Below, piece by piece: positions 12,277 to 63,987 of a stretch of 64,000 bases of DNA. Position 1 is the stretch's first letter. Each line of letters begins with the position of its first letter. The notes under the pieces were generated by a model, which was not told the origin of the DNA, did no database searches, and was given only the letters and a program-made list of their open reading frames with translations. A program made the position numbers and the translations under genes. Source of the DNA: Nitrospirota bacterium. Lineage in GTDB: Bacteria > Nitrospirota > Thermodesulfovibrionia > Thermodesulfovibrionales > UBA6898. The stretch lies in contig JACRMT010000023.1 of the NCBI GenBank assembly GCA_016214855.1, forward strand, positions 19,509-83,508, given 5' to 3'.

Positions 12277-12768
12277 TTATGCGGTCTGAAGCTTCGGGAT
12301 CATCGGTGCCATACCTTCCTGTTTGATGTCTCCTTTTATCCCAATGATCGTTTCGCTGTACGGAATATCTTTTCCTGAGTTCTTGATAGCCTGCTGGGTA
12401 ATATACGCAAGGCCTCCGCAGCAGGGGACTTCCATGCGGACAACACTTACGCTTTTGATCGAGAACTGCTTGAACATCTCGGTCAGGGTCTGAAAATACT
12501 CCTGCGCGTTATCGAGTTTCGGGCATCCGATGATAACCTTTTTCCCCTTGATGAATCTGCTGTGAAAACCAACTGCCGAGAATGCCGTACAGTCGGCGGC
12601 AAGCAGGATGTCAGCATCATTGAGATAGGGTGCTCCCGTCCCTATCAACTTCAGCTGAATAGGCCAGTTCTGAAGCTCAGGACACTCGTCCCCTGCCGTT
12701 GCTGCTGCAGTCTGCTTCTCTGAAAAGTTCACCGGTTTCATACTTGAACATCCGCATCCTTCTGACAT
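12277..12768 (-). CDS. Cys-rich protein of unknown function (probable Fe-S or metal-binding protein)
   Basis: 163 aa with a strong RBS (AAGGAGG). The Cys motifs are CGCSS at the N-terminus, LAADCTAF, IGCPKLD and MEVPCCGGL. I recall this C-terminal module from ferredoxin-domain proteins of anaerobes. Its function is not established. Confidence 0.6.
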   Translation of the reverse strand: MSEGCGCSSMKPVNFSEKQTAAATAGDECPELQNWPIQLKLIGTGAPYLNDADILLAADCTAFSAVGFHSRFIKGKKVIIGCPKLDNAQEYFQTLTEMFKQFSIKSVSVVRMEVPCCGGLAYITQQAIKNSGKDIPYSETIIGIKGDIKQEGMAPMIPKLQTA

Positions 12769-12824: not shown

Positions 12825-12867
12825 AGTATAAAACAGCCGGTTGAAGTTCGCTATGATTTAAATCATC
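12825..12867 (-). promoter_or_regulatory. Candidate class II CRP/FNR-type promoter for the Cys-rich gene
   Basis: Read on the minus strand: GATGAT-TTAA-ATCATA, then exactly 21 nt, then TATACT. The geometry is the same as the boxes at 56136 and 58498. Confidence 0.55.
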
Positions 12868-17176: not shown

Positions 17177-17800
17177 ATGTCGAAAAAGATGACAATTGAT
17201 GTACAGGCTAAACGGACCTCGCTGATTCCGCACATTTTTCTCGTTCTTATGGCCATGATCACTCTTATACTGGCATTTGCAGCAATTGTACCGGGAGTGC
17301 GACCAAATGCTGAGCTCTTTTCATCGCTCAATATCAACGGTGAGGATGCTGCGAAAAAGAGGATCCTGGACTGGATGGCAGAGAACTCTGCCGTATCAGA
17401 GCAGGTATTATCAAAGATCTACAACGCCGCAGCTGTCACCGGCAACAGGGACCTGATCCTTGCCATCTGCCTCGTGGAATCCAACTTCAACCCGCACGCG
17501 GAAAGCGACAAGGGTGCGATCGGTCTTATGGGGATAATGCCGGGCGTCTGGGTAAAGGAACTGAAGGAACAGGGCATTATACGGGAGAAAGATGATTTGT
17601 ACAAGATATCGGGCAATATAGCTGCCGGTGCTCATGTGCTTGAGACGTATCTGCTGGAAACAAATGACCTCAGGAAAGCACTGGTCCGGTATGTGGGCGG
17701 CGCGTCCTGGTACGCGACTAAGGTCTTACAGGCGCAGCAACAGATCAGGCTGGCACAATATTCAAACCATAAGCCCGGTACGGCAGACTGGCTTAATTAG
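17177..17800 (+). CDS. Lytic transglycosylase (SLT domain) with an N-terminal membrane anchor
   Basis: AICLVESNFNPHAESDKGAIGLMGIMPGVW carries the SLT catalytic-Glu motif. The RBS is AAGGAGG. Confidence 0.8.
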   Translation: MSKKMTIDVQAKRTSLIPHIFLVLMAMITLILAFAAIVPGVRPNAELFSSLNINGEDAAKKRILDWMAENSAVSEQVLSKIYNAAAVTGNRDLILAICLVESNFNPHAESDKGAIGLMGIMPGVWVKELKEQGIIREKDDLYKISGNIAAGAHVLETYLLETNDLRKALVRYVGGASWYATKVLQAQQQIRLAQYSNHKPGTADWLN

Positions 17801-18927
17801 GGGTGGTCGAGCTGTCTGGACTTTGGAACAATACGCTGGTAGTCCTGATACGAGACTGAGGAGCCCCATCTGTCTGTCAGTTTGGCAATAGTGATGCTGC
17901 CGAAAAAGAAGACAATGATGAGGCAGACGAACAGAAGGGGATGCGCTGCCTTTCTCGCGGGAAGAGATATATCGAGCGCACCTTTTGCGGGACAATGACT
18001 TACGCAGGTCAGGCATCCCGTACATTCCGGAGATCTCACCTGAGACAGTGTTTCCACCGGCAGAAGCGAAGGGCAATGTTCAGTGCACTTCCTGCAGTGG
18101 ATGCATGCCTGTTCGTTCCGCCTGATCTTGAGAGGGCTCAGGATGCTCAGCAGACCGAGAAGAGCACCGTAGGGACAGAGATATCTGCACCAGAAGTTCT
18201 TGTAACCCAGGGAAAAGACAAAAAGCAGTGACAGGGAGATCATCGTTGTTCTTGTCATCTCTGTGAAAAAGAAGAGCATTTTCACATCTGCTATTTTGTA
18301 ATAGTCGTTCTCAAGAAAGCGGAATATCACAAACGCAGGCATCTTCAGAACAATCACGTAGATAAAGAATGCCATAAGCAGATACTTCACTGATCTCAGG
18401 CCATAGTCTGCATAGCGGGGGATAGCGAAGTTCCTGCCAAAGATCTTCTTGCCGAGTTTCCATACGCCGTCAGAGAAAGCGCCCACAGGGCATATCCATC
18501 CGCAGAATCCTTTTTTCAGGACAACGGCCAGGACAATGGCTGCGACAAAGATGACAAGACCTGCGGGATGAATGCGGTCGAATACGCCTTCCATGATCCA
18601 GAGCTTAAGGCCCATAAGCGCGCCGATCGGCAGAAAACCTTCAACTCCAGGGAACCGGTTCTTCAGCACCTCTTCTTCACCTCCCGCCGGCAACGCTTCC
18701 CTGCTGAGAAAGTGGTCAGTGAAGATGAAGAAGTGGTACCCGGCATAAAGCAGGAAGAGAACTATTCCCCACTGCATTGTGTAGCGCAGATAGCGCACGT
18801 ACGCCCGGTCTATATTTCCCATGCTTATTAGTGTAAAGAAAACAGGCTGAAGAATAGTATGATTTAGGACATATGGCCTGGAGCGTCGGCTGCAGGCTGC
18901 ACTTTCTGTTGCAATGCCGATCGCCAC
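17797..18927 (-). CDS. NapH/MauN-type membrane polyferredoxin (4Fe-4S binding)
   Basis: It has multiple TM helices. The motifs are CGWICPVG and CRYLCPYG, plus two CxxCxxCxxxCP clusters (CIHCRKCTEHCP and CTGCLTCVSHCP). The start is uncertain; the internal MGNIDR... is possible. Confidence 0.75.
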   Translation of the reverse strand: MAIGIATESAACSRRSRPYVLNHTILQPVFFTLISMGNIDRAYVRYLRYTMQWGIVLFLLYAGYHFFIFTDHFLSREALPAGGEEEVLKNRFPGVEGFLPIGALMGLKLWIMEGVFDRIHPAGLVIFVAAIVLAVVLKKGFCGWICPVGAFSDGVWKLGKKIFGRNFAIPRYADYGLRSVKYLLMAFFIYVIVLKMPAFVIFRFLENDYYKIADVKMLFFFTEMTRTTMISLSLLFVFSLGYKNFWCRYLCPYGALLGLLSILSPLKIRRNEQACIHCRKCTEHCPSLLPVETLSQVRSPECTGCLTCVSHCPAKGALDISLPARKAAHPLLFVCLIIVFFFGSITIAKLTDRWGSSVSYQDYQRIVPKSRQLDHP

Positions 18928-50647: not shown

Positions 50648-51271
50648 ATGGCTGAAGAAGGAAAGATACTCGATATAGCACATGTCAGTTTCCTGGACAT
50701 GATCAAGATCATGATAACCCTGAGCGGAGCAGCAAGCGCAAAGGGAACTCTCATCAGGAATGCTATCAAGACTGCGGAGAGGATCTCCGAGGTGGACTAT
50801 CCGGCCTTTGAGGACTATCTTGCTGCAATAGAGAACGCTACAAACCCTATCACCATGATCGAGGGCAAGGCGACCCATGCAGGCAATTTTGTTTTCGGTC
50901 TTCAATACTGTCCCTTTGGTCCGTCCATAAAGAATTACACCCAGGTCTTTGAGAAACTGCCTGACGGGTTCGCGGATTTTACGGCTGAGTTCAACAAGCC
51001 GAGCAATATCACAGACCAGTTCCGGGTTGGCGAGGGAGCAGGCGTGAGCCCCTTCTGTTCGGTACATCAGCCGATGCGGAGCGCCTTTGCCGAGAAGATC
51101 ACCATTGGCGGGAAGAAGATAAAGATCACGCAGCTTGGCTGCAAGGCCGGCTCAGGCAAAAAGGGTTTTGCGGAAAAATGGCTGGCTGAAAGCGGCGTGC
51201 CACGGGATCTTGTGGACAAGATCCTCGACAATCATATGTGCTGTTATTCCCTGAAGATCCTGGATGCGTAA
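50648..51271 (+). CDS. Hypothetical Cys-containing protein (207 aa)
   Basis: The ORF has an AAGGGG RBS and lies 15 nt after the regulator gene. It carries conserved-looking Cys (YCPFGP, PFCSVHQP, LGCKAG, HMCCY). It may be a V4R-like ligand-binding protein, but I cannot support that. Confidence 0.5.
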   Translation: MAEEGKILDIAHVSFLDMIKIMITLSGAASAKGTLIRNAIKTAERISEVDYPAFEDYLAAIENATNPITMIEGKATHAGNFVFGLQYCPFGPSIKNYTQVFEKLPDGFADFTAEFNKPSNITDQFRVGEGAGVSPFCSVHQPMRSAFAEKITIGGKKIKITQLGCKAGSGKKGFAEKWLAESGVPRDLVDKILDNHMCCYSLKILDA

Positions 51272-51277
51272 CCGACG

Positions 51278-51748
51278 CTAAATATTTTCGAAGTTCTTAT
51301 ATGACTCCATGACATAGTCGGGGATAATCTTCAATGCCTCCGTTGCATCACGCAGCCGCCTGCAGAGGGTCCTGATGATCGACCGGTAGATCTTGTTTGC
51401 AAGTTCCTTGTCGTGCGCCAAAACCTGTTCGAACTTGTCTGATGCCAGCTTTATCAGGGCTGCATCGGTGGCTGCAACAAGAGTGGCAGAGCGCGGACCT
51501 TTGTCGATAAAGGCTATCTCGCCAAGCGGTTCCCCTGCCTCAACGGTTTCGAGATGGGCGCCGCTTTTCATGATTCTGACCGCTCCTGATTTTACGATAT
51601 AGATCGCATCACAGGGAGACCCTTCCCGCATGATCTCCTCCCCCTCTGCAAAAGATACATTCTCGGTAATGATATTGACCTTGATCAGCTCTCCGGTAGA
51701 AAGGTCTTTCAGAAAAGAGATATTTCTCAGAAGGTCCATGTTTTCCAT
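51278..51748 (-). CDS. Cyclic-nucleotide-binding domain protein (no DNA-binding domain)
   Basis: FAEGEEIMREGSPCDAIYIVKSGAV...GEPLGEIAFID..PRSATLVA is the cNMP-binding fold. It is only 156 aa. Confidence 0.85.
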   Translation of the reverse strand: MENMDLLRNISFLKDLSTGELIKVNIITENVSFAEGEEIMREGSPCDAIYIVKSGAVRIMKSGAHLETVEAGEPLGEIAFIDKGPRSATLVAATDAALIKLASDKFEQVLAHDKELANKIYRSIIRTLCRRLRDATEALKIIPDYVMESYKNFENI

Positions 51749-55023: not shown

Positions 55024-55974
55024 TCATTCTGTAATGATGATCTGCTCTTTATTGCAAGGCCGGGAAGAACAGTTACCCTGAGACTCCCGGCACTCTTCAG
55101 CTGAGTTCTTTTCTCCAGACTGAAAATGAAATAGCCCTTTGCCCTCGCCCAGTTCCTTATGGCATGCCGCAATACAGGCCCCGCAGTTCACGCAGGAGAT
55201 GTCGCGTTTGTTCATTCTCGGCAGAACATTCATAAAACATGCCTTTTCACAGCCCTTGCAGTTCGTGCATTCATCGGCGCGTTCATTGTTCATCCTCACC
55301 CGCAGGGAAACAGGACTTGTCCAGCCAAAAAGCATCTGCATAAGCCCGGCAGCACAAATATATTTGCAGAGTGAATGGCGCACCAGGATCGATGTGACCA
55401 GCATATAGATAGAAACACCAATAATACCGGCCTTTACGCCGAAGGTAAAGTTCCAGCTCATGATCTGGGCCCAGATGGTCTTGGGAGCAACAAGATAACC
55501 CGTAAGCGCCACTCCGCCGATCAACGGAAGAACAACCATGCTCAGGAGGGCAATGAGCACATAGAGAAATTTCCTCTCTCCTGATACCTCTGGATCATTC
55601 GGCCTCTTCACAAAAAGGCTTCTGCGTCCGAGAAACTTGAGCGTAAGATTGTCGGCCAGCTCAAAAAGCGTTCCCTCAGGGCAGAACCAGCCGCAGAAGA
55701 ACCTGCCGCTCAGAAACCCCAGAAGAGGAAAGATAGCCAGAAACACGATCCAGGGCAGGATAGCCTTCAGAAATATCTGAAAAGCAACATGGCCTGCTGC
55801 GCGAACACTGTGGTCAGCATAGAACGCCTCTTTCAATCCAAGGCTCCAAACCTGTCCGAAAATGATCAGTTCTTTTGTGGCAGTGTCATACCTGAATATA
55901 TTCAGCACAGGCATAAGGAAAACGAGCAGGATAAAGGCTATCTGGGTTGTTCTTCTGTAAACGGTAATGTTCAT
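55024..55974 (-). CDS. NapH/NosH-type membrane polyferredoxin (4Fe-4S binding)
   Basis: It has TM helices. The motifs are CGWFCPEG and CKYICAAG, plus CTNCKGCEKAC and CVNCGACIAAC. Confidence 0.75.
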   Translation of the reverse strand: MNITVYRRTTQIAFILLVFLMPVLNIFRYDTATKELIIFGQVWSLGLKEAFYADHSVRAAGHVAFQIFLKAILPWIVFLAIFPLLGFLSGRFFCGWFCPEGTLFELADNLTLKFLGRRSLFVKRPNDPEVSGERKFLYVLIALLSMVVLPLIGGVALTGYLVAPKTIWAQIMSWNFTFGVKAGIIGVSIYMLVTSILVRHSLCKYICAAGLMQMLFGWTSPVSLRVRMNNERADECTNCKGCEKACFMNVLPRMNKRDISCVNCGACIAACHKELGEGKGLFHFQSGEKNSAEECRESQGNCSSRPCNKEQIIITE

Positions 55975-56021
55975 GATGTAACTCTACCACTGAAGCCGGA
56001 GCACTGCCATGATTTACGTCA

Positions 56022-56088
56022 TACAGAACAAAAAGATAGGAAAAGGGGGAGGCTGCCCCGGTTTATTGGAGGGGACAGGGGCAGCCTC
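56022..56088 (-). promoter_or_regulatory. Leader stem-loop plus T-rich tract (possible attenuator) upstream of the NapH-like gene
   Basis: On the minus strand: GAGGCTGCCCC, an 18-nt loop, GGGGCAGCCTC (11-bp stem), then CCCCTTTTCCTATCTTTTTGTT. It lies between the predicted promoter and the ATG at 55974. Confidence 0.45.
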
Positions 56089-56108
56089 TGGGGACAATAA
56101 TATTATAT

Positions 56109-56151
56109 ATCGTACTATGATTTTTTAATAGGGGATATGATGTAAATCATA
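56109..56151 (-). promoter_or_regulatory. Candidate class II CRP/FNR-type promoter upstream of the NapH-like gene
   Basis: TATGAT-TTAC-ATCATA on the minus strand is a perfect palindrome, extended to ATATGAT/ATCATAT. Exactly 21 nt follow, then TACGAT. Confidence 0.55.
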
Positions 56152-56364: not shown

Positions 56365-57756
56365 TTACGCCCTTTCCGGCGCGGCTGATACTGCCGGAGC
56401 AGGTCCCTTGCCGAGTCTGAAGAAGTCAATTACAAAGATACCAACACCGATCAGGAAGCCTACACCAAAGATCGCGCGCAGGACCCAGAACCAGAGGTTA
56501 TAGTTTGCCTTTACCGCCACATAGTCAAGACCCATCAGCCTTTCCATATAGACCTGAACCATGCCGGCCCCTGTGATCGTCAGAACGATAAAGACCATAG
56601 AGATGGTCATCCACCAAAAAGATGTAAAGGCGCGGGATGCGTCAAACGACTTCACACCGCGTATTGCAGGAAGCGTTATATAGATCATGGCCATGACAAG
56701 CAGGACATATGCGCCATAAAATGCAAGATGGCCGTGCGCGGTCGTGATCTGGGTCCCATGCGTCCACTTGTTGATCTGGGGAAGCGTGTGGATGATCCCC
56801 CACAACCCTGCTCCCACAAAGTTAAAGATAGCATGGGCAACCGTATAGTACAAGCCTGCCTTGTTCTCTACGTTCCTGGCCTCTCTTGTAGTTCTGAATG
56901 CATCCCAGACCATGAAGAGCAACGGAAGAGGTTCAAGCGAGCTGAAGATACCGCCGACCCAGAGCCAGTAGCTTGGGGTGCCGATCCAGTAATAATGATG
57001 GCCTGTGCCGAGGATGCCGGTGAACATAACGAACCCCACCTCGATATACATCCATTTCTCGACAACCTCTCTCTTGGCGCCTACAACCTTCATAAGCATA
57101 AAGGCAAGAAGAGCACCGGCGATGACCTCCCATGCACCTTCAACCCAGAGATGGATGACCCACCACCACCAGAACTGGTCCTTTACCATACTTTTGCTGT
57201 AGAACATGCCCGGCAGATACATCAGGGCAAGCACCAGAAGGCCGCCGACAAGCGTGCCCTGTATGCCGGTCCATTTCTTTGTCTTCATCATGGTCATGAA
57301 ATTAATAAATAGAAAGAGCAGGACCGAAATAACGATCAGCGCGTCTGCCCAGCGCGGGGCCTCGATATATTCCCTGCCCTCATTCAGCGGATTAATGCCC
57401 ATGATCGGACTGTTGGCCTGGGGATTCAGCCCCATCCAGATATAGCCCAGCACAACAGCAGTGATCGCCACGACCGTTGCCCAGAATTGGAGCTTTGCAA
57501 GGGGCAGGCTCCAGAGCTCTGTCTCAGACTCCTCAGGCACAACATAGTATGTTGCTCCCATCAGGCCGCTAAGAAGCCAGACAACAAGGGCGTTGATATG
57601 CAGGGTCCTGATCGTGTTGAAGTTCAGGATAAAGAAACTCGGCCAGATGAACTGGAGAGCTGCGATGATCCCGACCAGCACCTGGACCAGGAACAGGACG
57701 ACCGCAAAGGTATAGAAGTATTCTGCTATCTTTTGACTTTGATATTTCACACTCAT
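56365..57756 (-). CDS. norB: Nitric oxide reductase large subunit NorB (cNOR-type heme-copper oxidase family)
   Basis: The N-terminus is KYQSQKIAEYFY. The motifs WWWWVIHLWVEGAWE and GTGHHYYWIG are present, with 12 TM helices. It lies directly downstream of norC. Confidence 0.9.
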   Translation of the reverse strand: MSVKYQSQKIAEYFYTFAVVLFLVQVLVGIIAALQFIWPSFFILNFNTIRTLHINALVVWLLSGLMGATYYVVPEESETELWSLPLAKLQFWATVVAITAVVLGYIWMGLNPQANSPIMGINPLNEGREYIEAPRWADALIVISVLLFLFINFMTMMKTKKWTGIQGTLVGGLLVLALMYLPGMFYSKSMVKDQFWWWWVIHLWVEGAWEVIAGALLAFMLMKVVGAKREVVEKWMYIEVGFVMFTGILGTGHHYYWIGTPSYWLWVGGIFSSLEPLPLLFMVWDAFRTTREARNVENKAGLYYTVAHAIFNFVGAGLWGIIHTLPQINKWTHGTQITTAHGHLAFYGAYVLLVMAMIYITLPAIRGVKSFDASRAFTSFWWMTISMVFIVLTITGAGMVQVYMERLMGLDYVAVKANYNLWFWVLRAIFGVGFLIGVGIFVIDFFRLGKGPAPAVSAAPERA

Positions 57757-57767
57757 GGTATCACCTC

Positions 57768-58439
57768 CTATTTCAATGTAAGCATGTAATCGGTTAATTT
57801 TTCGATCTCAGACTCAGGCGCCTCAACCTTTGGCATGGCCGAGTTTTTAACAAAAGCGGCAGGGTCCTTGAAGTGGCCGACGAGCCACGTCCTGTCGTGC
57901 TTTGCACCGACCCTGGTAAGATCAGGTCCTGTTGTGCCGCCGATGCCGTTGATCGTATGGCATGCAGAGCATCCATGGGACTGATAGAGCTTCTGGCCTT
58001 CTGTAAGCTCCCTGCCTGCGACCCCTCCTGCTGCTGCCAGGATCGGTTTTGGCGGCCATCCGTTGGTATCAACCTTGGAAGTCCAGTCCAGGAAGACGAT
58101 AAGATCATCAGCCTCCTCAGACCTGATACCGAGCTTTGGCATGGATGCGTTGGGGTTTGCAGATTTCGGGTCCATCAGGAACTGCTTGAGATAGCTTTTC
58201 GGCTTGTTCAACGTTGTCTTGGTCAGATCAGGTGCGAAATACGATCCGTTCCCGAAGATCGTATGGCAGCCGATGCAGTCATACTTGTGCCAGACCATCT
58301 TTCCGGCGTTCACCTTCTCCGTGATTTCAGGGGCCCTCTTATCCAGCTTTCCCATGGTGTCATAGGTCAGCCCTAAAAAGATCGCAAAGAAAAAGAGACT
58401 GCCGAGAATGAAAAGATTTCTTGCTGCTTTGTTGCTCAT
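57768..58439 (-). CDS. norC: NorC-like membrane-anchored cytochrome c fused to a second class I cytochrome c domain (two CxxCH)
   Basis: The TM anchor is ARNLFILGSLFFFAIFLGL. The NorC-type motif is MVWHKYDCIGCHTIFGNGSYFAPDL and the second heme motif is GCSACHTINGIGGTTGPDL...MPK. I chose the ATG at 58439 after AAGGAGGTG. Confidence 0.85.
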   Translation of the reverse strand: MSNKAARNLFILGSLFFFAIFLGLTYDTMGKLDKRAPEITEKVNAGKMVWHKYDCIGCHTIFGNGSYFAPDLTKTTLNKPKSYLKQFLMDPKSANPNASMPKLGIRSEEADDLIVFLDWTSKVDTNGWPPKPILAAAGGVAGRELTEGQKLYQSHGCSACHTINGIGGTTGPDLTRVGAKHDRTWLVGHFKDPAAFVKNSAMPKVEAPESEIEKLTDYMLTLK

Positions 58440-58470
58440 GAGGAACACCTCCTTTGTTTTTTCTGCTTTT

Positions 58471-58540
58471 ACCATAGCAGGCAGCGCCGCATACTGGTAT
58501 GATGCTAATCATATGCATCTGACTCATAAGCAGGTAGGGT
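58471..58540. promoter_or_regulatory. Candidate bidirectional class II CRP/FNR-type promoter (norCB and CBS-HPP)
   Basis: The box TATGAT-GCTA-ATCATA occupies 58498-58513. Exactly 21 nt away on the minus side is TATGGT (58471-58476), and exactly 21 nt away on the plus side is TAGGGT (58535-58540). Confidence 0.6.
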
Positions 58541-58585
58541 AAAAGTAAAAGATTTACGGTAAAAACAGCGTGAGGCATAGAGACA

Positions 58586-59212
58586 ATGTCACCTGATGAA
58601 CAAACACCCATGCAGAAAAAAGATGTAGTGGTTCCCCTGGAAGTTTCTGACGCTGACATCTATGAGGCGATGAAGGATATCCCCGGATATCTCGACATCA
58701 CTCCTGCTGACCTGAAAGAGATATTCCGCTTTGCATACCGCCATGCAATCGACCGGCTCAGCCGCTCAGTAAGAGCCGCGGAGATCATGACAAGGGCCGT
58801 GTACTTTGTAAAGACACATACCCCGCTCAGGGATGTTGCAGAGATCATGGCAGAAAAGAGAATCTCCGGTGTACCTGTCCTTGACGAGACAGGGAGCGTT
58901 ACCGGGATCATCTCGGAAAAAGATTTTCTGGTCTCTATGGGCAGCTCAGATACAGAACATGTAATGGGCATCATTTCTGCGTGCCTGGATGGAAAGGGAT
59001 GTTTGGCAGCCCCGATCCGCAGCAAAAAAGCCTCTGACATCATGGCGTCACCAGCAATAACCGTTCAGGAGGAAAGCTCAGCCTTTGAGATCATAGACCT
59101 CTTCAATAAGAAGAATATCAACCGGGTGCCGGTTGTTGACGGTTCAGGCAAACTGACAGGCATTGTTTCGCGAGCCGATATCCTGAAGGCTCAGCTGATC
59201 AGGCGGCAATAA
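58586..59212 (+). CDS. CBS-domain pair protein
   Basis: It has two CBS repeats (IMTRAVYFV...ISGVPVLD... and IMASPAITV...INRVPVVD...). Confidence 0.85.
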   Translation: MSPDEQTPMQKKDVVVPLEVSDADIYEAMKDIPGYLDITPADLKEIFRFAYRHAIDRLSRSVRAAEIMTRAVYFVKTHTPLRDVAEIMAEKRISGVPVLDETGSVTGIISEKDFLVSMGSSDTEHVMGIISACLDGKGCLAAPIRSKKASDIMASPAITVQEESSAFEIIDLFNKKNINRVPVVDGSGKLTGIVSRADILKAQLIRRQ

Positions 59213-59213
59213 C

Positions 59214-59756
59214 GTGCTGAAGGCTTATTTTGAAAAGATGAAGGGTACGACCAAGAGCCCTCCCCGCGTCAGTCTATCGGAGATCGCCTGGTCCTGGCTC
59301 GGAGCGTTCCTCGGCATCGGATTTATATCTTTTGCCAATTACCATATTTTTGAAAAAATAGATCTGCTGATGATCGTGGGCTCCTTTGGCGCCTCTGCAG
59401 TGCTGATCTATGGAGCGATCAAGAGTCCTCTTGCGCAGCCAAGAAACCTCATAGGAGGCCATCTCTTTTCAGCGATCGCAGGTGTAGCATCATACCAGGT
59501 CTTTCACAGCCATATCTGGCTCGCAGCAGCAGTCGCTGTTGCCACGGCAATAGCGGTCATGCATGCAACGAAAACGCTCCATCCGCCGGGCGGTGCAACC
59601 GCGCTCATTGCGGTCATCGGAGGGGAGAAGATCCATAATCTCGGGTTCATGTATGCGATCTTCCCGGTTGGCGGAGGCGTGCTGATCATGCTGATCATCG
59701 CCCTGCTGGTGAATAACATCTCGAAGAACAGACGCTATCCGGAGTTCTGGCTTTAA
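59214..59756 (+). CDS. HPP family membrane protein
   Basis: It has four TM helices and the signature HPPGGATAL. It starts 1 nt after the stop of the CBS gene. Confidence 0.85.
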   Translation: MLKAYFEKMKGTTKSPPRVSLSEIAWSWLGAFLGIGFISFANYHIFEKIDLLMIVGSFGASAVLIYGAIKSPLAQPRNLIGGHLFSAIAGVASYQVFHSHIWLAAAVAVATAIAVMHATKTLHPPGGATALIAVIGGEKIHNLGFMYAIFPVGGGVLIMLIIALLVNNISKNRRYPEFWL

Positions 59757-61747: not shown

Positions 61748-62662
61748 TCACCACCATCTCCAGAGGGAGATGATAAAAACGATCGAAAAGATAAGAAAAA
61801 GGTTCATGTAAGCAAAGAAGTAAAAGATCCTTATCTGGAGCGGTGTTTTCTTCTCAGCCCCCTGAATCAGCTTCCCAATAACAGGCATGTTGAGGATCTT
61901 GTCTTCCTGGTGCGGCGCTGTTTTCAGAACATCAGTCATGTCGATCCCCGCAGCATGCTTTCTGAAATGGCTGCCATCCTTCCAGAGTCTGCTTGCAGAG
62001 ACATCATAGATAGTGCCCTGATATGCCACATACGCAGGCCGCCCCTCTTTCCCGTCGAACGGTGAGAGCTGATCATGGGTAAGGTCCTGCGGGCTCTGTT
62101 TAAGTTCACTCTGTTTCTTCCTGCGCAGCCTCGGTCCCACAACAAAGGTAACAAATACGGCTGTTGATACCATTATGAGAAAGAGGATGACCTTGATCGT
62201 CAAAAGAATGCCGAACCGCGTATGGAAGAGCATCTGCCAGGTCGGCACCCGGGCGATCGAAAGAAGGGTGCCGGTCACTGCCATAATTATGATCGATCCC
62301 CAGCCGAGCATCAATTCTCCTCTGGGCAGTCCTCCTGCAGCATAGGCCGGCTTCAGGACAATATGAACATAGATAATGGTTCCGAACCAGACAATAGCTG
62401 TCATGGTATGGAGATAGCCAATGATGAACCGGATCACGTGCTGGGCCGGATTAAGCACCCGGTACTGTCCTTTTATCCTGAGATCATCCTTGAATGACTC
62501 TCCCTTCTGCGTGAGTTTTCCGCCGCCTGTGGGATCGACATGGCAGTCACTGCATATCCTGCCGGTCTGTCCCGCATACTCGGTAGTGCAGAAACCGCTT
62601 GTTGGAGAGAAGATAATAATAGACAGGAATATGAGCACCACTACATTACGACGGATTATCAT
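61748..62662 (-). CDS. Membrane protein combining an N-terminal CxxCH heme c motif, a 4-5 TM core and a cytochrome b5-like heme/steroid-binding domain
   Basis: The heme c motif region is TEYAGQTGRICSDCHVDPTGGGKLT, followed by TM helices. The b5-like part reads FDGKEGRPAYVAYQGTIYDVSASRLWKDGSHF..H.AG.D.T. A final TM helix closes the protein. Confidence 0.7.
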   Translation of the reverse strand: MIIRRNVVVLIFLSIIIFSPTSGFCTTEYAGQTGRICSDCHVDPTGGGKLTQKGESFKDDLRIKGQYRVLNPAQHVIRFIIGYLHTMTAIVWFGTIIYVHIVLKPAYAAGGLPRGELMLGWGSIIIMAVTGTLLSIARVPTWQMLFHTRFGILLTIKVILFLIMVSTAVFVTFVVGPRLRRKKQSELKQSPQDLTHDQLSPFDGKEGRPAYVAYQGTIYDVSASRLWKDGSHFRKHAAGIDMTDVLKTAPHQEDKILNMPVIGKLIQGAEKKTPLQIRIFYFFAYMNLFLIFSIVFIISLWRWW

Positions 62663-62721
62663 TCACCCTTATCTCCTCTGCATGACATATGCAAGCGTAT
62701 ATCTGATATCAGAGGCGAATT

Positions 62722-63987
62722 TCAGTCCCAGGAGAGAAGCCGTCTTTCTCCTGTCAGGGCACGTATTTCTGTCACATCCTGGCTCACCTCAAGGGTGCCG
62801 CGGTATTTGCCTTTTGTATCGCGCACGGCAAAATACCTGATCAGAATGAACCTGCCGCGCATCTGTATCCAGAAGTCAGCATCGTCTTTTTCCCCTCGTT
62901 TGAAGGCTTCGAGGATCTTTTCGACAATATCAACGCTCCTGGGCGGATGGCAGTTCTGGACCTTCCTGCCGATGATGCCGGGACTCCTCGGGAAAATACG
63001 GTCCTGCGTAGCAGAGTAATAGACCACTTCATCGTTTTCGTTCACAAATGATACATCAACCGGCAGATGGGTCAGCAAGAGATTTACCTGCTCAGGCGTG
63101 ATCTGGCCCGTATCAAGGTTAATGCTGCCAACCTTTTCTTCAGCGAGCGCCAACCCGGACATGCCGGATGGTACCCACTCATCCACCTTATCAAGCCAGG
63201 CAAAACCTATCTCCTCTTCGCCCTTTTTGACCTTGAACCAGTCCTCATCGCTCAGTGTTTCGAGCGCCATGGGATAGAGAATATGTTCTTCCTTGTAGAT
63301 CATGTCATTGATCATGGTAATAAGTGTCTTGATCTCCAGGTCTTTGACTGTCTTGTCAACTGCTCCTGCTTTTACATGTCTGAGCATGTCGCGTATGTCG
63401 TCATGAAGCGCCCACATGACCTTGGACGGTCCGGTAATGCCCTTTGTCTCAAGGATCGGAAAGAGCTGATTTTCCTTCCTTGCATAATGTTTTTCTATCG
63501 GAGAGAGCTTTTCGATAAGGTGCGGCAGGCCGGCCTTATCTTTGAGCCCTTCCAGCTCCTGCGTGATGGACTCAGTGTGACGGTTTTCGAGCATAAGGGT
63601 ATGGACAGGATGACCCACAGGCAGGCCGGGTAGGGTCTTTTTTTCAAGAGACTCCTTGAAGACCTCGACATGGACGCTGCAGAGCTGTTTCACCTCCTGC
63701 TCAGGCATGCCCTCGCTTATCAGTTTCTGCTCCATCTGAGCGATCTCATAGGGCGACACGTCCTTGATCAATTCCAGGAATCTCTTTTTCAGGATCCCGA
63801 TATCAACGCCCTTATGGATATCCCTGATGATCCCCTTCAGGATCTCTTCCCTGTTTTCAGGCGATGTTTCATCGCTCTTAATTGATATGATCTCGTTGGT
63901 CATCTTTCGGATCTCCCCGGCAATACCCTGCATGAGAGCATCGAGATCAACGCCGCCCACAAGGGCAGCCTGATTCAGCGTCGCCAT
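62722..63987 (-). CDS. DUF438 / hemerythrin-like / PAS domain protein
   Basis: The N-terminal DUF438-like part reads LKKRFLELIKDVSPYEIAQMEQKLI. The hemerythrin-type helices are HYARKENQLFPILE...MWALHDDIR. The C-terminal PAS domain is (FVNENDEVVYY...FWIQMRGRFILIRYFAVRD). Confidence 0.7.
   Translation of the reverse strand: MATLNQAALVGGVDLDALMQGIAGEIRKMTNEIISIKSDETSPENREEILKGIIRDIHKGVDIGILKKRFLELIKDVSPYEIAQMEQKLISEGMPEQEVKQLCSVHVEVFKESLEKKTLPGLPVGHPVHTLMLENRHTESITQELEGLKDKAGLPHLIEKLSPIEKHYARKENQLFPILETKGITGPSKVMWALHDDIRDMLRHVKAGAVDKTVKDLEIKTLITMINDMIYKEEHILYPMALETLSDEDWFKVKKGEEEIGFAWLDKVDEWVPSGMSGLALAEEKVGSINLDTGQITPEQVNLLLTHLPVDVSFVNENDEVVYYSATQDRIFPRSPGIIGRKVQNCHPPRSVDIVEKILEAFKRGEKDDADFWIQMRGRFILIRYFAVRDTKGKYRGTLEVSQDVTEIRALTGERRLLSWD

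Follow-up and report, generated by a model that had tools for sequence, protein, structure and literature searches.

What controls two gene pairs that are read away from each other, and does a single protein act on both from the symmetrical box lying between them? This question is raised by a locus of a Nitrospirota bacterium (NCBI GenBank assembly GCA_016214855.1, contig JACRMT010000023.1, positions 19,509 to 83,508), and the whole analysed stretch of 64,000 nucleotides (nt) is called the window here. The genes of a nitric oxide (NO) reductase, norCB, are read to the left of the box, and a pair of genes encoding a CBS-pair protein and an HPP-family membrane protein (CBS-HPP) is read to the right. 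In our study, we found that the box belongs to the motif ATGAY-N4-RTCAT, which is conserved upstream of norC in nearly all of the examined Nitrospirota and stands at a fixed distance from a -10-like hexamer. The box is very probably the target of a dimeric class II activator of the CRP/FNR family, belonging to a group with the recognition helix TVETSIR, which would switch on both norCB and CBS-HPP. The elements of the locus are as follows.

57768..58439, minus strand, gene of a norC-like dihaem cytochrome c of 223 amino acids (Pfam FixO, NorB_cytochrome_c-like and Cytochrom_C)
56365..57756, minus strand, norB, gene of the catalytic subunit of a cytochrome c-dependent nitric oxide reductase (Pfam COX1)
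58471..58476, minus strand (ACCATA on the plus strand), TATGGT, -10-like hexamer of the norCB promoter, 21 nt from the box of 16 base pairs (bp)
58498..58513, shared box TATGAT-GCTA-ATCATA (TATGATGCTAATCATA), centre at 58505.5, weight-matrix score 20.6
58535..58540, plus strand, TAGGGT, -10-like hexamer of the CBS-HPP promoter, 21 nt from the 16-bp box
58586..59212, plus strand, gene of a CBS-pair protein, the first of the divergent operon (Pfam CBS, E 5.6e-34)
59214..59756, plus strand, gene of an HPP-family membrane protein (Pfam TM_HPP, E 4.2e-62)

An initial annotation made from the letters of the window had called the element at 58498-58513 a perfect 16-bp palindrome; the arms form a perfect inverted repeat of 6+6 nucleotides, but the central GCTA is not palindromic. 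The other measurements of that annotation agreed with the sequence. TATGGT on the left and TAGGGT on the right are each exactly 21 nt from the box, the divergent spacer is 146 nt long between the ATG codons of norC (58439) and CBS (58586), and the box recurs at 56136 and 12852, where TACGAT and TATACT lie 21 nt away on the minus strand. Two further boxes, at 56009-56022 and, with one mismatch, at 18859-18872, had been overlooked. The transcript of norCB is predicted to start near 58464, with a 5' untranslated region of about 25 nt that contains GGAGG at 58452..58448, and that of CBS-HPP near 58547. The other boxes of the window and the genes behind them are listed below.

56136..56151, distal box TATGATGTAAATCATA, score 24.9, the top weight-matrix site of the window
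56109..56114, minus strand, TACGAT, -10-like hexamer 21 nt from the distal box
56008..56023, proximal box cATGACGTAAATCATg (minus-strand reading) of the NapH-like gene, 14-nt core at 56009-56022, score 21.2
55981..55986, minus strand, TAGAGT, -10-like hexamer followed by 6 nt and ATG 55974
55024..55974, minus strand, gene of a NapH/NosR/CcoG-like membrane iron-sulfur protein (Pfam Fer4_5; NCBIfam NapH/MauN below the curated cut-off)
12852..12867, box TATGATTTAAATCATC upstream of the PF27217-domain gene, score 19.1
12825..12830, minus strand, TATACT, -10-like hexamer 21 nt from the box at 12852..12867
12277..12768, minus strand, gene of a 163-amino-acid protein with a bare PF27217 domain (precomputed PF27217 label)
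18858..18873, minus strand, possible weaker box ATGTC-CTAA-ATCAT with one mismatch, core at 18859-18872, score 14.8
17797-18822, minus strand, second NapH-like gene (Pfam Fer4_5)

In the window, ATGATNNNNATCAT was present in 4 copies against 0.21 expected, and the relaxed pattern ATGAYNNNNRTCAT in 5 copies against 0.48 expected; none of 100 shuffled sequences reached 5. An exact match to ATGATCAAGATCAT at 50699-50712 was rejected as a box. It is situated inside an open reading frame of 207 amino acids of no recognised family, has a low weight-matrix score, is devoid of the T/A flanks and of a -10 hexamer at 21 nt, and is probably a chance occurrence.

The conservation of the box was studied with one genome per GTDB species, which gave 80 norC loci, 77 of them with usable upstream sequence. 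Together with the window, 78 regions were examined, up to 300 nt upstream of norC. ATGAY-N4-RTCAT was found in 73 of them (72 species genomes and the window), amid flanks that were unconserved. The T preceding the box was kept in 71 of the 72 profiled promoters, though it was outside the search pattern, and the position profile showed a preference for TTAA at the box centre. The consensus from 191 distinct sites was T-ATGAY-N4-RTCAT-A, with TATGATTTAAATCATA as the full consensus or optimum. The TGA-N6-TCA core, which CRP and FNR sites also have, was invariant across the sites, the dyad symmetry covered 14-16 bp, and the half-sites varied at position 4 (C in 22/72 sites) and position 9 (G in 9/72). 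Within the 846 kilobases (kb) of the loci and the window, 141 copies of ATGAY-N4-RTCAT were counted against 3.2 expected, an enrichment of about 44-fold. A crude call of open reading frames placed 116 of the 141 boxes between genes, and several of the "intragenic" ones fell in spurious reading frames upstream of norC, so the boxes are neither randomly distributed nor mostly intragenic, as the proposal of a dedicated regulon had implied. In an outer-base control over the same 846 kb, the A..T form occurred 141 times and the T..A (FNR type), C..G and G..C forms 3, 4 and 3 times, respectively; the patterns other than A..T were thus at chance level. As remarked in the initial annotation, the core ATGAT-N4-ATCAT departs from the FNR type only at the outermost base. 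In eight of the loci (L065, L066, L075-L078, L081 and L082), two boxes abut upstream of norC with their centres 14 bp apart, for example ATGATATAAATCAT-ATGATGTAAATCAT.

The position of the box relative to the promoter was found to be strict. In 38 of 73 norC promoters, TAnnnT followed the 16-bp box at exactly 21 nt; any other offset gave 0-7 cases. When the norC loci and the regulator-centred loci described below were pooled (215 non-redundant boxes), TAnnnT occurred 146 times at the 21-nt gap and 4-12 times at most of the other offsets, with secondary peaks of 24-31 at gaps of 22, 23 and 26 nt. The distance from the box to the ATG of norC was 62-123 nt, with one outlier of 258 nt; as this distance is variable, the constraint acts between the box and the -10 hexamer. 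No -35-like hexamer (TTGACA-like) was seen in the position profile of the norC promoters, and no sigma-70 -35/-10 pair was found by a scan of the norC/CBS spacer. With a transcription start 7 nt after the hexamer, the centre of the box would fall at -41.5.

An anchor that is independent of the -10 hexamer was provided by genes whose messenger RNA (mRNA) appears to lack a leader. On the minus strand, the proximal region reads ATGACGTAAATCAT, 22 nt, TAGAGT, 6 nt and ATG 55974, without a Shine-Dalgarno sequence, and the centre of the proximal box is 41.5 nt upstream of the A of this ATG. The NapH-like orthologues keep the same order of box, 22 nt, TAnnnT, 6 nt and ATG, together with a conserved N-terminus M-x-I-T-x-Y-R. 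A distance of 40-42 nt between box centre and ATG, again without a Shine-Dalgarno sequence, was found for 17 genes of four unrelated families (NapH-like, RseC/MucC-like, COX1-like membrane protein and iron-sulfur protein). The weaker box at 18859-18872 shows a similar geometry before the second NapH-like gene, with its centre 43.5 nt upstream of ATG 18822 and a TACACT hexamer present. The mRNA of the NapH-like gene is predicted to be leaderless and to come from a class II promoter. If these mRNAs are leaderless and so start at the A of the ATG, the genes put the box at -41.5 whatever is assumed about the -10 hexamer. The class II position near -41.5 that the initial annotation had given to the box is thus predicted twice, from the fixed 21-nt gap across many species and from the leaderless-type ATG distances.

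The CBS side of the spacer was examined in the same way. Besides the window, CBS was divergent from norC with a box between them in 8 species loci. Among the other CBS/HPP-facing boxes listed, TAnnnT was found at 21 nt in 10 of 16, and the CBS-side hexamers included TAAGGT (L003), TAAAGT (L004), TAGCGT (L005), TAAGCT (L007 and L009), TATCCT (L011) and TATTTT (L018). The two-way layout is therefore kept in the closer relatives, and the bidirectional reading of the initial annotation holds for them and for the window.

As stated in the initial annotation, the window contains no CRP/FNR gene with a helix-turn-helix (HTH), which was confirmed by tblastn. The only related gene of the window, at 51278-51748 (minus strand), encodes a protein of 156 amino acids with a stand-alone cyclic-nucleotide-binding domain and no DNA-binding domain; it was rejected as the regulator for the lack of an HTH. 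The CRP/FNR-family genes that the annotation had proposed to locate were found in other genomes, as a conserved family next to box-controlled genes. Two of them were detected by phmmer in the norC loci L023 and L067, where they adjoin orthologues of the window gene 12277-12768. Their homologues form a tight Nitrospirota family of 223-225 amino acids (Pfam PF00027, PF13545 and PF00325). The HTH, LTKQDIAEMVGTTVETSIRTMSK, was invariant in 14 aligned members, which were 67-93% identical to the first of them overall. The recognition helix reads TVETSIR against TVETISR in FNR of Escherichia coli, so that the Glu and Arg are kept and Ser212 is replaced by Ile. The residue at the Ser212 position of FNR reads the outermost base of the half-site, as established in FNR/CRP specificity-swap work. 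The substitution thus falls at the residue that reads exactly the base differing in the box. The N-terminal Cys cluster of FNR is absent; the candidate starts after the cluster, and only Cys121 and Cys224 are conserved. The family reached no NCBIfam equivalog cut-off. In a profile search of the PDB, mycobacterial Crp, NtcA and CooA ranked above DNR, and the DNR and FNR structures were distant (E about 1e-16).

A metagenome scan centred on the regulator gene covered 80 loci and 460 kb and contained 91 boxes. A box was present within 1.3 kb downstream of the regulator gene in 29 of the 43 loci with room for it, against about 0.2 expected, and upstream of the regulator gene in 0 of 45 loci. These boxes, usually paired, precede a 135-amino-acid COX1-fragment-like membrane protein in 33 loci, and in 5 of the 33 (L083 and four close relatives) a PF27217 gene was found on the opposite side of the box pair. 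From the linkage and the recognition helix, the cognate regulator is most likely a member of this Nitrospirota-specific CRP/FNR group of 223-225 amino acids with TVETSIR, encoded outside the window. The 135-amino-acid protein has four helices and is similar to the C-terminal region of subunit I of haem-copper oxidases (Pfam COX1 positions 310-425). No other box-controlled neighbour accompanies the regulator gene as constantly; it lies about 0.5 kb downstream in L083-L162 and was also found in L020 and L023. Other candidates for the regulator were rejected. A gene of regulator-like size behind a box in L003 (1479-2165) is DUF6448, L010 5108-5770 could be assigned to no family and is possibly not a genuine gene, and L067 1755-2411 gave no match to E. 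coli CRP or FNR, nor did the other two of these box-adjacent genes. A response regulator in L041 (2283-2981) was a weak false match.

Next to the boxes stood norCB, CBS-HPP and genes of NapH-like proteins, an NrfA-like cytochrome c552, a multihaem cytochrome, a membrane protein of the cytochrome b5/CopD-like type, and hemerythrin, cupin, RseC/MucC-like and DUF6448 proteins. A Fur-family gene was box-adjacent in three loci, and hcp was not seen among these genes. This content is that of a regulon for the reduction or detoxification of nitrogen oxides, and with norCB, the NrfA-like and multihaem cytochromes, HPP, hemerythrin and the NapH-like gene standing at boxes, the dedicated nitrogen-oxide regulon of the initial annotation was recovered. 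Judged by this content, the signal of the regulator would be NO or nitrite stress. Nitrite transporters are among the members of the HPP family. Many homologues of the PF27217 protein, of about 250 amino acids, are fused at the N-terminus to a 2x[4Fe-4S] ferredoxin, and this fusion recalls FrdX of the HcpR regulon. Both the short and the ferredoxin-fused forms occur in Nitrospirota.

We propose that the dimer bound at -41.5 would stand in for the -35 element and recruit RNA polymerase of the sigma-70 type to the weak TAnnnT -10 hexamer. In the norC/CBS spacer, one dimer would occupy -41.5 of two back-to-back promoters, and norCB on the left and CBS-HPP on the right would be switched on together. 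Further targets of the same regulator would be the NapH-like gene at 55974, whose promoter would yield leaderless mRNA, the PF27217 gene at 12768 and, at the distal box (56136), a short C-rich RNA; the second NapH-like gene at 18822 is a possible target as well.

Several observations weigh against this proposal. About a third of the boxes have no TAnnnT at exactly 21 nt, and the hexamers of the window, TATGGT and TAGGGT, are weak matches to a -10 element. The two abutting boxes upstream of norC in some genomes go beyond a simple one-dimer class II model. The regulator gene itself is outside the window, and its assignment was made from the linkage of its gene to the boxes and from a site geometry usual in the family; the linkage is strong, and it is not proof of binding. 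A site covering the -35 region can equally serve a repressor. The box may be a genuine class II site of the CRP/FNR type that is bound by a paralogue outside the TVETSIR family, which we regard as unlikely. Synteny is the basis of the TVETSIR assignment, several CRP/FNR paralogues are usual in Nitrospirota genomes, with two in one Nitrospira genome (PMC8510549), and the window holds no regulator gene; against this, the boxes lie within 1.3 kb of the TVETSIR gene in 29 of 43 loci where about 0.2 would be expected, an invariant HTH matches an invariant half-site, and the substitution at the Ser212 position corresponds to the differing outer base. Slightly less likely still is an operator at which a repressor, either a negatively acting CRP/FNR protein or an unrelated dimeric HTH protein such as one of the Rrf2/NsrR type, would block both -35 regions until it is released by NO. 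In favour of this, nor and hmp genes are often repressed by proteins of the NsrR type (PMC1274295), the box overlaps the would-be -35 region, and an inverted repeat alone fits an activator or a repressor. However, promoters without a -35-like hexamer should be inactive in the absence of an activator, and the strict 21-nt spacing reflects a demand for one face of the helix, which is typical of class II activation and not of occlusion. Moreover, no Rrf2 gene was seen linked to the boxes and a Fur-family gene was box-adjacent in 3 loci only, while the TGA-N6-TCA core and the linkage to a CRP/FNR gene point the other way.

It is scarcely conceivable that the palindrome binds no protein at all and is a chance repeat, a dispersed repeat element or an RNA hairpin. 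Short AT-rich palindromes do arise by chance, and one of the five matches of the window (50699) is intragenic, but a chance or dispersed repeat is opposed by the 44-fold enrichment, by the orthologous positions in 72 species genomes and the window, and by the outer-base control. For a hairpin, changes in the half-sites would be expected to be compensatory, and they are not (position 4 is C in 22/72, position 9 is G in 9/72); in addition, the box is upstream of both predicted starts and so would not be transcribed. The TVETSIR-group activator is thus the explanation that we carry forward.

Compared with known systems, the regulator would be of a well-known type whose DNA target differs slightly. 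The published motifs of this family (Rodionov et al., 2005; PMC1274295) are TTGATnnnnATCAA for FNR/DNR, wyTTGACnnnnGTCAArw for HcpR1, GTAACnnnnGTTAC for HcpR2 and TTAACnnnnGTTAA for NssR, and none of them has the half-site ATGAY. FNR, ANR and DNR, with TTGAT-N4-ATCAA, share with the present system a 14-bp dyad, the TGA-N6-TCA core, a site upstream of nor genes, a centre at -41.5 (predicted here), an apparent absence of a -35 element, the CRP/FNR fold and the recognition helix V-E-x-x-x-R. They differ from it in that the outermost base of the half-site is A here and not T, and that the candidate has Ile for Ser212 and no Cys cluster. Features of FNR proper were not found, as TTGAY-N4-RTCAA occurred only 3 times in 846 kb and the N-terminal [4Fe-4S] Cys cluster was absent. 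HcpR1 has a predicted nitrosative-stress regulon in delta-proteobacteria and cyanobacteria, which includes nrfA and ferredoxin-like genes, and in Synechocystis the HcpR1 regulator gene is divergent from norB (PMC1274295). It resembles the present case in the predicted nitrosative-stress regulon of strict anaerobes, in nrfA and in half-sites ending in GAC or GAT, whereas here the first base is A instead of T, no hcp was seen, and the regulator gene does not adjoin nor in most genomes. NssR of Campylobacter and HcpR2 are nitrosative-stress activators of the CRP/FNR family, in which half-site and recognition helix have changed together (PMC1274295); their half-sites lack the TGA core that is kept here. 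The initial annotation had called the regulon "Dnr/NnrR/HcpR-like". This stands for the mode of action, since the system would work like a class II activator of the DNR or HcpR type, but not for the subfamilies, whose half-sites begin with TTGAT, TTGCG, TTGAC or GTAAC and not with ATGAY. From motif and protein comparison, the regulator is not demonstrably a member of DNR, NnrR or HcpR and appears to be a separate branch.

A single CRP site serving divergent promoters is known from E. coli, with 11 natural cases (PMC3105977), and a model study of one CRP site with divergent promoters is cited in the same paper (El-Robh and Busby, 2002, as cited in PMC3105977). malX/malI is among the pairs regulated by different CRP molecules (PMC3105977) and hence gives no single-site precedent. 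The likeness lies in one dimer that activates both of two back-to-back promoters. The regulator and the signal are different here, and the site would be symmetric, at a predicted -41.5 from both promoters. A metatranscriptome paper on Nitrospira (PMC8510549) assigned an NnrR homologue with borrowed matrices and did not describe the ATGAY motif. No description of the ATGAY motif was found in the literature on the motif, on HcpR in Thermodesulfovibrio or on CRP/FNR regulators in Nitrospirota. The regulon and the cognate subfamily of Nitrospirota are apparently previously undescribed.

A broader reading of these results, which we hold to be evenly balanced between right and wrong, is that an undescribed NO- or nitrite-responsive branch of the CRP/FNR family is present in Thermodesulfovibrionia and related Nitrospirota. 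The change of Ser to Ile would re-target it from TTGAT to ATGAT and insulate its regulon from canonical FNR-type regulators, and its sites at -41.5 would drive ordinary mRNAs, leaderless mRNAs and a conserved, C-rich anti-Shine-Dalgarno small RNA whose gene lies in the nor locus. In that case, the small RNA would add a post-transcriptional arm to the response to NO or nitrite. In aquifers and sediments, Thermodesulfovibrionia and their relatives among the Nitrospirota are abundant; they carry NO reductases, and almost none of them have been cultured. For these organisms, the ATGAY motif offers a readout, from sequence, of the genes deployed against nitrogen oxides, including uncharacterised ones such as the CBS-HPP pair, the NapH-like gene, the PF27217 protein and the 135-amino-acid membrane protein resembling an oxidase fragment. 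Ser is exchanged for Ile in the helix and T for A in the site, a clean pairing in which the co-evolution of regulator and target specificity can be tested, and the class II promoters predicted to give leaderless mRNAs allow unusually precise predictions of transcription starts.

The transcript predicted behind the distal box was examined as a candidate small RNA.

56023..56103, minus strand, candidate small RNA of about 75 nt behind the distal box and TACGAT, between norB and the NapH-like gene

The element contains a 5' GUCCCC, an 11-bp GC-rich stem with an invariant GCUGCC/GGCAGC core and a loop with CCCCUCC, followed by a C-rich 3' end (CCCCC) and a U-rich tail that ends at the proximal box. 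A covariance model found 13 instances. Every one is in a nor locus, with the NapH-like gene on one side and norB or the b5/CopD gene on the other, and the regulator loci gave none. Their positions in the other loci were as follows.

L003 8309-8379, L004 9125-9195, L005 9110-9189, L007 4062-4137, L008 8109-8174 and L009 9108-9182
L013 5553-5632, L018 6389-6455, L037 7105-7170, L041 9230-9294, L048 3282-3353 and L070 3317-3387

Compensatory changes were found in 6 of the 12 stem pairs, and no Rfam family was matched. An exact or one-mismatch box precedes 11 of the 13 elements, 10 of which have TAnnnT at the 21-nt gap; L005 has a box with two mismatches and L008 has no recognisable box. The element may be an NO-induced small RNA directed against Shine-Dalgarno sequences. 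RoxS/RsaE of Firmicutes is a C-rich small RNA that pairs with Shine-Dalgarno sequences and is controlled by an NO- or redox-responsive regulator. The two are alike as short RNAs with several unpaired C-rich motifs, without a relationship in sequence or in Rfam, and the RNA described here differs as a single hairpin found only in nor loci of Nitrospirota. To our knowledge, no RNA-based regulation has been described in the phylum Nitrospirota, for which this candidate is a concrete lead.

The true start of norC is ATG 58439 and not 58475, as its homologues have 223 amino acids and the N-terminus MSNKAARNLF. In NorC (57768-58439, minus strand), a second cytochrome c domain is fused to the FixO/NorC-like domain, and this dihaem form is kept throughout the Nitrospirota homologues. 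The best matches of NorC were all from Nitrospirota/Thermodesulfovibrionales, with 94% identity to a groundwater metagenome-assembled genome and 76-77% to Sulfobium and Dissulfurispira. An identical NorC was not found in public assemblies, and an identical NorB was present on two short metagenome contigs only. NorB matched NorB of the Pseudomonas aeruginosa cytochrome c-dependent nitric oxide reductase (3O0R_B) over its full length (E 3.6e-115, residues 2-451). Neither the solved structures nor the copies of Pfam and NCBIfam that were searched gave a match for the 163-amino-acid protein at 12277..12768. The second NapH/Fer4_5 paralogue is listed with a GTG start at 18927, which is probably incorrect. 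At the end of the window (61748-63987, minus strand), a DUF438-hemerythrin-PAS protein of 421 amino acids is followed by a cytochrome b5/CopD-like membrane protein, and the promoter of this pair lies beyond the window end. The cytochrome b5/CopD-like protein was also found in the nor locus of 35 other genomes, often right after norB.

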